Below, piece after piece: positions 16,640-17,409 of a stretch of DNA of 64,000 bases (the stretch's first letter is position 1; each line of letters begins with the position of its first letter). Origin of the DNA: Escherichia coli (GTDB taxonomy: Bacteria; Pseudomonadota; Gammaproteobacteria; Enterobacterales; Enterobacteriaceae); the NCBI RefSeq assembly GCF_044647545.1, contig NZ_CP172818.1. One strand, given 5' to 3'. The notes below the pieces were generated by a model that saw only the letters and a program-made list of their open reading frames with translations, did no database searches and had not been told where the DNA came from. A program made the translations under genes and the position numbers.

Positions 16640-16983
16640 ACCACTCCTATATAGTACCCAGACTATGGGTCTATGGATTTTGTCATTTTGTTTAAATCAA
16701 TGAATAATATCCTCTTATCATCATGATATTTGTATGGTGCAATCATGATGAGCTTCTCAGAGAATAATTCTCTATTACCGGGCAAAATCAGGAACACAGG
16801 AATTAATATATATTTAACATCCCCCTTACAAAGGTGAGTTTATATCGAGTTATTCCCTAAGTTGTCGTTACTTATTCCAATTCGTTACTATAAATATGGC
16901 AAAAATATTACAACAAACAGCGGTTAAAAAATTTGGTGAAGATTTTTTGTAATAATCCTAATTAGTTATGGGAATTTCGCTTG

Positions 16984-17163
16984 ATGTATCTGCATAACAA
17001 AAACAATATGCGCCATTTTTGCATTACTAATAAGAAAAAGCAAAAAACATCGATATTCATTTTTGGTCAATGGGTTTTCTGGCCTATCGTTGTTATTGTG
17101 CTACTGGTTATCATTTTCATCTTGCCAGCATATTGGAGCGTGATCAATTTTGATCAGCTGTGA
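16984..17163 (+). CDS. Hypothetical small single-pass membrane protein (59 aa) in the AT-rich region upstream of the autotransporter gene
   Basis: ORF with one strongly hydrophobic segment (WVFWPIVVIVLLVIIFILPAYW) after a Lys-rich N-terminus; no RBS verified; AT-rich DNA produces chance ORFs. Confidence 0.2.
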   Translation: MYLHNKNNMRHFCITNKKKQKTSIFIFGQWVFWPIVVIVLLVIIFILPAYWSVINFDQL

Positions 17164-17321
17164 AGGGGGCTGATGTGTAGTGATACAAAAACTTACGTTA
17201 TATCACTGCTAATGAGATATCCGGCATCTGAACACTTATGTCTTTAATTATTCTCGTGGTTCACTATAGGCAATAAGCACAAAAGTGTAGGATGTTACAA
17301 GAATGAATTAGGACTCTATGA

Positions 17322-17352
17322 AATGAAAAATCCACGCAATTGCGTGGATTTA
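17322..17352 (-). terminator. Rho-independent terminator downstream of ychF
   Basis: Perfect hairpin ATCCACGC-AATT-GCGTGGAT followed by a U-run on the minus-strand transcript. Confidence 0.7.
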
Positions 17353-17409
17353 ATGGTTTTTTTGATTCTCATGAAGTTCAATGAAACCTCATGAGACAAC
17401 AAATTTTAT

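Follow-up and report, generated by a model that had tools for sequence, protein, structure and literature searches.

The AT-rich ycgV/ychF spacer of Escherichia coli: a listed promoter island containing a small hydrophobic open reading frame that is probably not a conserved gene

The intergenic region between the autotransporter gene ycgV and its neighbour ychF on the Escherichia coli/Shigella chromosome is, in the reading that we favour and consider likely, a long AT-rich upstream control region belonging to the acquired ycgV gene, followed by a stretch of spacer found in E. coli only and then by the bidirectional terminator of ychF, with the small open reading frame (ORF) that it contains being incidental. 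In the 64,000-nucleotide stretch of E. coli DNA analysed here (referred to below as the window), this region occupies positions 16640–17409 (770 bp), and the ORF, which has 59 codons, lies on the plus strand at 16984–17163. The ORF is probably not a functional conserved gene, since its length varies from strain to strain, its sequence is under no detectable constraint and it has no relatives outside E. coli. At most, to judge from its sequence, it may be a young proto-gene that is translated occasionally.

The spacer is bounded by the start of a minus-strand ycgV-like autotransporter ORF at 16639 and by the stop codon of ychF, also on the minus strand, at 17410; dhaR lies upstream in this neighbourhood, and pth, ychH and dauA lie downstream. 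The original prediction of a 770-bp AT-rich island between the autotransporter start and ychF had these boundaries right: the GC content of the spacer is 0.332 compared to a window mean of 0.501 (sd 0.04), with local values of 0.31–0.37 between flanks of ~0.50–0.52. Just 0.09% of 770-bp segments within the 64 kb are equally AT-rich, and every such segment with a GC content of 0.37 or less begins at 16281–16871. The counterpart of the spacer in E. coli K-12 MG1655 is NC_000913.3 1255953–1256720, to which the first 666 bp (from 1255953 onward) are 100% identical, the last ~100 bp having diverged. Identity to K-12 MG1655 in fact runs through 2.3 kb of the window (14960–17305, comprising the 5′ part of ycgV and most of the spacer, 100% identical), whilst the genes flanking this tract differ from K-12 by ~1.5–2%, a pattern that suggests a mosaic or a recent recombination tract. 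The ychF-proximal 104 bp (17306–17409) show 26 differences to K-12 and are unlike all 25 other sampled haplotypes, and of 4,727 matching E. coli records, only 4 reach 99% identity or more over any part of the 770 bp.

The spacer is present in many but not all strains of the species. At least 80% of the 770 bp is found in 4,095 of 5,426 complete E. coli genomes; ~630 of the 5,426 match the ychF-proximal ~90 bp only and 700 match nothing, ycgV and the spacer together being missing from ~1,330. In E. coli p11A a tyrosine integrase and an IS3-family element adjoin ychF, and the match to the window picks up again at the ychF terminator hairpin. Genomes without ycgV have a tyrosine integrase and ISEc24 directly beyond this hairpin (L005, p11A, 1702–3091; window ~17320–17351), suggesting that the hairpin marks the edge of variable DNA and that the region downstream of ychF is a hotspot for island integration. 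YcgV variants at 64–92% identity all come from the same E. coli locus and are within-species alleles only. In the window, ycgV is a pseudogene (13785–16639, minus strand), with a 561 amino acid N-terminal ORF (14954–16639) followed by fragments; substitution clusters and small indels relative to K-12, where the gene is intact and encodes 955 amino acids, are found at 14165–14960.

Citrobacter farmeri encodes an orthologue of YcgV, 83% identical, whose gene is flanked by a porin gene and an ialB-like gene at a chromosomal position unrelated to that of ycgV in E. coli, and comparison of the upstream DNA (blastn with the low-complexity filter off) divides the spacer in two. In one C. farmeri sequence (L048) the DNA upstream of the orthologue aligns to 16640–17051 (E=2e-13, ~65% identity), whilst a second (L045) aligns in two segments, 16640–16978 and 17016–17051 (80% identity, E=1e-4). 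No alignment between the C. farmeri upstream DNA and the window extends past 17051. Because the alignment covers 16640–17051 and ends there, ~410 bp of upstream DNA appear to travel with ycgV, and this segment would represent the regulatory region of the gene. For the DNA that follows (17052–17327), no homologous sequence was detected at the C. farmeri locus or elsewhere outside E. coli; SNPs and 1-bp indels abound in it, and both the part of the ORF that encodes the helix and the 3′ flank of the ORF are located there. From 17052 to the terminator, this E. coli-only DNA measures ~270 bp, or 345 bp in strains that carry an extra 75-bp segment.

The spacer ends in the intrinsic terminator of ychF, a perfect 12+12 palindromic hairpin at 17328–17351 with T-runs on both strands. 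A stem of 10–12 bp with T-rich tails on both strands is what is expected of a Rho-independent bidirectional terminator, and the hairpin could stop plus-strand transcripts too. It is also the point at which homology resumes in strains without ycgV. The plus-strand T-run that follows the hairpin (GGTTTTTTT) is longer here than in K-12. A second, imperfect hairpin is located at 17367–17396 (minus strand), directly past the ychF stop codon.

Published work bears out the original prediction that the spacer is a nucleoid-protein-silenced promoter region, in the form of H-NS ChIP results and a promoter-island listing (PMC3661553). Under the name ycgV(-)ychF(-) 1255333_301, the spacer is among the 78 K-12 promoter islands of Panyukov and Ozoline, these being listed regions of at least 300 bp with an extreme density of transcription start points predicted by PlatProm; the island is tagged as associated with predicted foreign genes and as H-NS-bound (‘A’) in all the ChIP studies cited (PMC3661553 Table 1). 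Moving the island coordinates from U00096.2 to U00096.3 by an inferred +777, a conversion good to within a few bp, places it at 16797–17097, spanning the 187 bp upstream of the 59-codon ORF together with the first 38 codons of the ORF itself. The combination of AT-rich DNA and a horizontally acquired gene that characterises such islands is found here (GC content 0.33 versus 0.50; an accessory gene with its C. farmeri orthologue at a different locus). Genomic SELEX has identified an RNA polymerase holoenzyme peak in the ycgV/ychF spacer (PMC5493296), and in an avian pathogenic E. coli strain ycgV is repressed by YbdO, a LysR-type regulator that binds a 126-bp EMSA probe in vitro (PMC11681634). 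The primers for this probe (ACCACTCCTATATAGTACCC and ATTCTCTGAGAAGCTCATCA) match 16640–16659 and 16746–16765 exactly, and the probe thus corresponds to the ycgV-proximal 126 bp (16640–16765, minus strand).

Our own scan of the spacer with a simple sigma-70 consensus found one promoter-like site compared to 5.4 in shuffled sequences, that is, fewer rather than more, so the ‘promoter island’ label rests on the published PlatProm analysis. The H-NS nucleation motif TCGWTWAATT (with up to one mismatch) has no site in the spacer, its sites in the window being fewer than in shuffles, which makes the motif uninformative here, and no result describing de-repression of ycgV upon hns deletion was found in the literature examined. 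Following the steps described in the literature, H-NS would polymerise on the AT-rich DNA of the spacer, RNA polymerase would occupy many promoter-like sites with little productive transcript (the ‘promoter island’ state) and YbdO would add further repression at the ycgV-proximal 126 bp. Owing to H-NS polymerisation, unproductive RNA polymerase binding and YbdO repression, ycgV would normally be silent. That silencing by H-NS and YbdO is the function of the spacer, with the ORF incidental to it, is what we infer and hold to be likely.

The ORF itself (MYLHNKNNMRHFCITNKKKQKTSIFIFGQWVFWPIVVIVLLVIIFILPAYWSVINFDQL), no more than a candidate coding sequence, runs from ATG to TGA and represents an allele with an in-frame deletion (see below). 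It is present exactly as first described from the window, with a Lys-rich N-terminus (KKKQK) and one long, very hydrophobic predicted helix, and is identical in K-12 MG1655 (NC_000913.3 1256297–1256476). The original prediction carried the caution that AT-rich DNA generates such ORFs by chance, and for length this holds: in dinucleotide shuffles of the 770 bp, the longest ATG-initiated ORF has a mean length of 54.6 codons and reaches at least 59 codons with P=0.34, whilst for the 844-bp allele of the spacer the probability of an ORF of at least 84 codons is 0.13. The length of the ORF is at chance level. For the helix (P<=0.001) the caution fails. The best 19-residue Kyte–Doolittle window of the ORF scores 3.06, and an ORF of at least 59 codons with a window of at least 2.9 was seen in none of 2,000 global shuffles and in 0.1% of shuffles within 90-bp blocks. 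At the hydrophobic core of the predicted helix are 13 consecutive NTN codons (I35–L47; 17086–17124, plus strand), and a run of this kind occurs in no more than 0.1% of shuffles even when composition is kept in 45-bp blocks. The hydrophobic, 3-periodic helix is beyond compositional chance and is not accounted for by the explanation that we prefer; it has the look of present or former coding sequence, which keeps alive the ideas of a young protein and of a relic of a lost gene.

Signals for expression have less to say. Inspection of the ribosome binding site, one of the checks originally proposed, reveals a weak Shine–Dalgarno sequence (GGGA, 10 nt upstream of the ATG) with a pairing energy to the anti-Shine–Dalgarno of −4.2 kcal/mol, similar to the values for pth (−4.0) and ychF (−4.8) and uninformative; 5 of the 39 ATGs in the spacer have pairing equal to or better than that of the ORF. 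A candidate extended −10 element (TGTAATAAT) is located upstream of the ORF at 16948–16956, and a putative 406-nt transcript folds better than its shuffles (z=−2.6), with the Shine–Dalgarno sequence and AUG paired to codons 9–15. None of the three, Shine–Dalgarno sequence, −10-like site or RNA folding, discriminates between the hypotheses. The strongest Shine–Dalgarno match in the spacer (AAGGGGG, −10.8 kcal/mol) belongs to another ORF, of 24 codons (MCSDTKTYVISLLMRYPASEHLCL; 17173–17247, plus strand), which starts 10 nt past the stop codon of the first; in many haplotypes, substitutions and 1-bp indels change both its Shine–Dalgarno sequence and its reading frame.

The predicted 5′ hairpin does raise the idea that the ORF encodes the toxin of an unrecognised type I toxin–antitoxin pair, a membrane-damaging peptide kept under control by an antisense RNA and by folding of its mRNA. 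Sequestration of the Shine–Dalgarno sequence and AUG within a well-folded transcript would suit such a system, as would a small single-helix hydrophobic peptide encoded in an intergenic, acquired and variably present region. We nevertheless regard this as highly improbable: no Pfam or NCBIfam toxin family is matched, no antisense promoter/terminator pair was identified, and an Rfam scan of 15500–19500 (E<=1) returned no known RNA, only sub-threshold Leu_leader matches driven by the terminator hairpin and CrcZ at E=1. The locus is, moreover, single copy, and a sequence that is unconstrained and often truncated is the opposite of what is seen in the known toxin families.

Across E. coli the ORF exists in three common alleles, which we counted in the 5,426 complete genomes with diagnostic oligonucleotides that each seed on one allele only. 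The 59 amino acid form found in the window and in K-12, recognised by the junction of a 75-bp deletion, is carried by 1,985 genomes; where the 75-bp segment is present, it contains either a TAA codon (the nonsense allele, 67 amino acids, 1,843 genomes) or an open CAA codon (84 amino acids, 274 genomes). The total of 4,102 is in line with the 4,095 genomes carrying the spacer and with the presence of the ORF start region in ~4,097. Codons 1–48 are open in all three alleles, whilst in 93% of carriers the allele is a truncated or deleted one. In other strains the 75-bp segment is flanked by direct repeats of GCCAG, a single copy of which marks the junction here (17124–17128, plus strand), so loss of the segment from the K-12/window form by a microhomology deletion, in frame by happenstance, would be the more parsimonious account. 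The alternative that the segment is a mobile element, inserted with duplication of a 5-bp target, was rejected on the grounds that terminal inverted repeats are lacking and that the segment occurs essentially as a single copy. The same allele picture emerges from 37 metagenomic contigs whose retrieval was anchored outside the ORF, among them a frameshifted allele, an in-frame deletion of 6 bp and a contig with compensated indels; the last (L034, 1.6x coverage) may be an assembly error and was not used as evidence for selection on the frame. Further alleles frameshifted within the first 48 codons are found in the protein database, together with one that has an insertion after codon 21.

In its 84 amino acid form the ORF encodes a second, moderately hydrophobic segment past a Pro-Gly-Ser-His turn, which brings into play a further explanation, namely that the ORF is non-functional and its helix part a relic of an older two-helix membrane-protein gene, to which the 84-codon form is closest and which has decayed in most lineages through nonsense mutation, microhomology deletion and frameshifts. 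A coding-like periodicity that composition does not explain would then be accounted for, as would the second hydrophobic segment, the truncated or deleted state of the ORF in 93% of carriers and the GCCAG repeats around the lost 75 bp, which are as deletions would leave them. We consider both the relic origin and this course of decay quite unlikely, however, given that no homologue of any part of the ORF was found in 1.84 billion representative proteins, in plasmids or in phages, and that no outgroup was recovered with which to polarise TAA versus CAA. The N-terminal 23 codons, furthermore, belong to the ycgV-associated DNA, which is not protein-coding in C. farmeri, and the present ORF therefore cannot be the whole of an ancestral gene.

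Patterns of substitution are those of unconstrained DNA. Among 26 unique haplotypes (not counting contig L034 with its compensated indels), codons 1–48 have accumulated 11 non-synonymous and 2 synonymous changes (at 115 and 29 sites, respectively), corresponding to an omega of ~1.4. Neutral evolution is compatible with this value (P=0.5), and omega values of 0.2 or below are rejected (P=0.004); an 11:2 ratio shows none of the purifying selection by which a small membrane protein would be recognised. SNP density is 17% in the helix part of the ORF, 8% upstream of the ORF and 15% downstream, and of nine substitutions in the helix, eight leave a T at the second codon position (not significant). 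SNPs are scarce in the first 80 bp of the ORF (2.5%), but these 80 bp lie within the block conserved in C. farmeri, where the aligned sequence contains no ATG and no ORF, and the scarcity of SNPs is thus better read as a property of ycgV upstream DNA than of a protein. Nor is the unbroken state of the first 48 codons evidence of coding: only 3.7% of possible substitutions in these codons create a stop, so that after 13 neutral substitutions an uninterrupted frame still has a probability of P=0.61.

The boundary of homology at 17051/17052 cuts through the ORF, leaving the first 23 codons on the side that is non-coding in C. farmeri. On our preferred reading, the start codon and Lys-rich N-terminus would come from A-tract DNA whose counterpart upstream of the C. 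farmeri orthologue does not code for protein, and the helix from the T-rich, E. coli-only spacer. The same composite structure would also be expected of a newborn inner-membrane micro-protein confined to E. coli, formed when the A-tract regulatory DNA that supplies its Lys-rich N-terminus became joined to the T-rich spacer that supplies its helix, an origin that we think improbable. That such a protein segregates as three C-terminal isoforms (59, 67 and 84 amino acids), expressed only when H-NS silencing lifts, strikes us as equally improbable; if true, the locus would offer a natural snapshot of the birth de novo of a membrane protein in a bacterium.

Searches for relatives outside the species were uniformly negative. 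A word-indexed search of 5.8 billion proteins returned 96 relatives, all of them variants of this one ORF, of lengths 59, 67 and 84 amino acids or frameshifted in various ways; most are nameless, and those with a named source are all from Escherichia or Shigella. HMMER searches over 1.84 billion representative proteins gave 14 matches at E<=0.001, of which 13 are variants or fragments of the ORF, and no homologue outside Escherichia/Shigella; the fourteenth, a 451 amino acid protein (E=1.5e-4), shares a 15-residue hydrophobic stretch only and was rejected as a homologue. Patterns from the ORF peptide, run against GTDB species representatives, found two E. coli-like contigs only and no outgroup. 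These two (L006 and L007, labelled as an Actinomycetes MAG and Streptomyces sp. DH24) carry a K-12-type spacer, one of them being 400 bp long with 0.8x coverage, and most probably represent contamination of the assemblies with E. coli DNA. Among plasmids, tblastn gave nine matches, all to non-mobilizable E. coli records and three of them to records of chromosomal size (4.8–4.9 Mb), which we read as mislabelled chromosome records or fragments, with no true extrachromosomal copy; among phages it gave no match to the ORF, and in Pfam and NCBIfam nothing beyond noise was seen at E<=10.

The ORF is unannotated in K-12 RefSeq and in every PGAP genome examined, the spacer being empty in each. Locus tags skip between ycgV and ychF in strains 118UI (RS07150 to RS07160; L054) and 1190 (RS14075 to RS14060; L055), which suggests that one or two spacer genes were once annotated there and later dropped on re-annotation. 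Several GenBank records do annotate the ORF as a hypothetical or membrane protein, an example being EDL933_1906, the 67 amino acid allele, for which PredictProtein gives one transmembrane helix and inner-membrane localisation (PMC4765031 Additional file 1). In the study of Neuhaus et al., EDL933_1906 served as a length-matched annotated control and lies outside the 72 novel genes supported by footprints (PMC4765031). The supplements to a study of small intergenic genes in O157 Sakai contain neither the ORF peptide string nor the gene names, and the peptide and its genome coordinates were not found in the searchable full texts of the ribosome-profiling literature.

These results bear most directly on the rival that we consider unlikely but take most seriously, that the ORF encodes a real, E. 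coli-restricted inner-membrane protein. Its functional core would be the first 48 residues, made up of a cytoplasmic, Lys-rich N-terminus and a single transmembrane helix, and its C-terminal tail would be dispensable and hence free to vary between the 59, 67 and 84 amino acid forms. A helix beyond compositional chance would follow naturally, and the in-frame nature of the 75-bp deletion and the hydrophobic character of the helix substitutions (V/I, L/I, F/L, V/A) would be as expected; a weak but usable Shine–Dalgarno sequence, the candidate extended −10 (TGTAATAAT) and a downstream terminator usable on the plus strand would complete a plausible transcription unit. The core is open in three alleles that cover essentially all 4,095 genomes, but intactness of this extent is expected under neutrality (P=0.61), the omega of ~1.4 speaks against constraint, and core frameshifts occur in several lineages (for example, in a cluster of 11 members on 6 contigs). 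There are no homologues elsewhere, the C. farmeri DNA that corresponds to the start codon region is non-coding, and the ORF is missing both from the annotation of K-12, which includes many small proteins derived from ribosome profiling, and, as a peptide string, from the O157 Sakai supplements.

Loss of the reading frame in related genomes had been named at the outset as grounds for abandoning the ORF. Such loss is seen beyond E. coli and for the C-terminus, though not for codons 1–48 within E. coli. The original prediction had allowed that the ORF could be a real unannotated small membrane protein, and the caution with which it did so proves justified: purifying selection is undetectable, the C-terminus is variable, homologues are lacking and the ORF remains unannotated.

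As a control region the spacer is nothing new, being a catalogued, textbook example of H-NS-bound AT-rich DNA upstream of a cryptic adhesin gene. The wider interest lies in the ORF as a cautionary case for the annotation of small proteins, in that it combines a convincing N-terminus, a helix and a terminator with intactness in thousands of genomes. At this level of divergence, though, intactness is uninformative, the substitution pattern is neutral and, for half of the ORF, the corresponding DNA at the nearest homologous locus is non-coding. Should it turn out to be translated, the ORF would be a well-dated bacterial proto-gene with a natural isoform polymorphism.

Comparison with known systems places the spacer squarely among the promoter islands (Shavkunov/Panyukov/Ozoline; PMC3661553, PMC7054387), of which it is one of the 78: like the others it is AT-rich, H-NS-bound and adjacent to a gene predicted to be foreign, with low transcriptional output according to the literature, and there is no difference in kind. 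The regions upstream of yfaL and ydeK, cryptic K-12 autotransporter genes, are also listed promoter islands and resemble that of ycgV in having long AT-rich DNA before a pertactin-type autotransporter. The yfaL island provides a parallel case in having an annotated 47 amino acid small ORF of unknown function, ypaB (L056 5595–5738); ypaB is hydrophilic and co-directional with yfaL, whereas the ORF described here is hydrophobic, divergent from ycgV and unannotated in K-12, with EDL933_1906 of the re-annotated E. coli O157:H7 EDL933 genome corresponding to its nonsense allele. With the type I toxins (Hok, Ldr, TisB, Ibs, ShoB, DinQ, ZorO) the ORF shares a small hydrophobic peptide and an intergenic site, but has no family match, no antitoxin RNA that we could find, no multicopy distribution and no conservation of sequence. 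De novo proto-genes that give rise to transmembrane helices from thymine-rich non-coding DNA have been described in yeast. The ORF differs from these in having a helix more periodic than local composition predicts, but is otherwise alike in its taxonomic restriction, T-richness, predicted transmembrane helix, omega near 1 and length polymorphism, and in straddling DNA that is non-coding at the nearest homologous locus.
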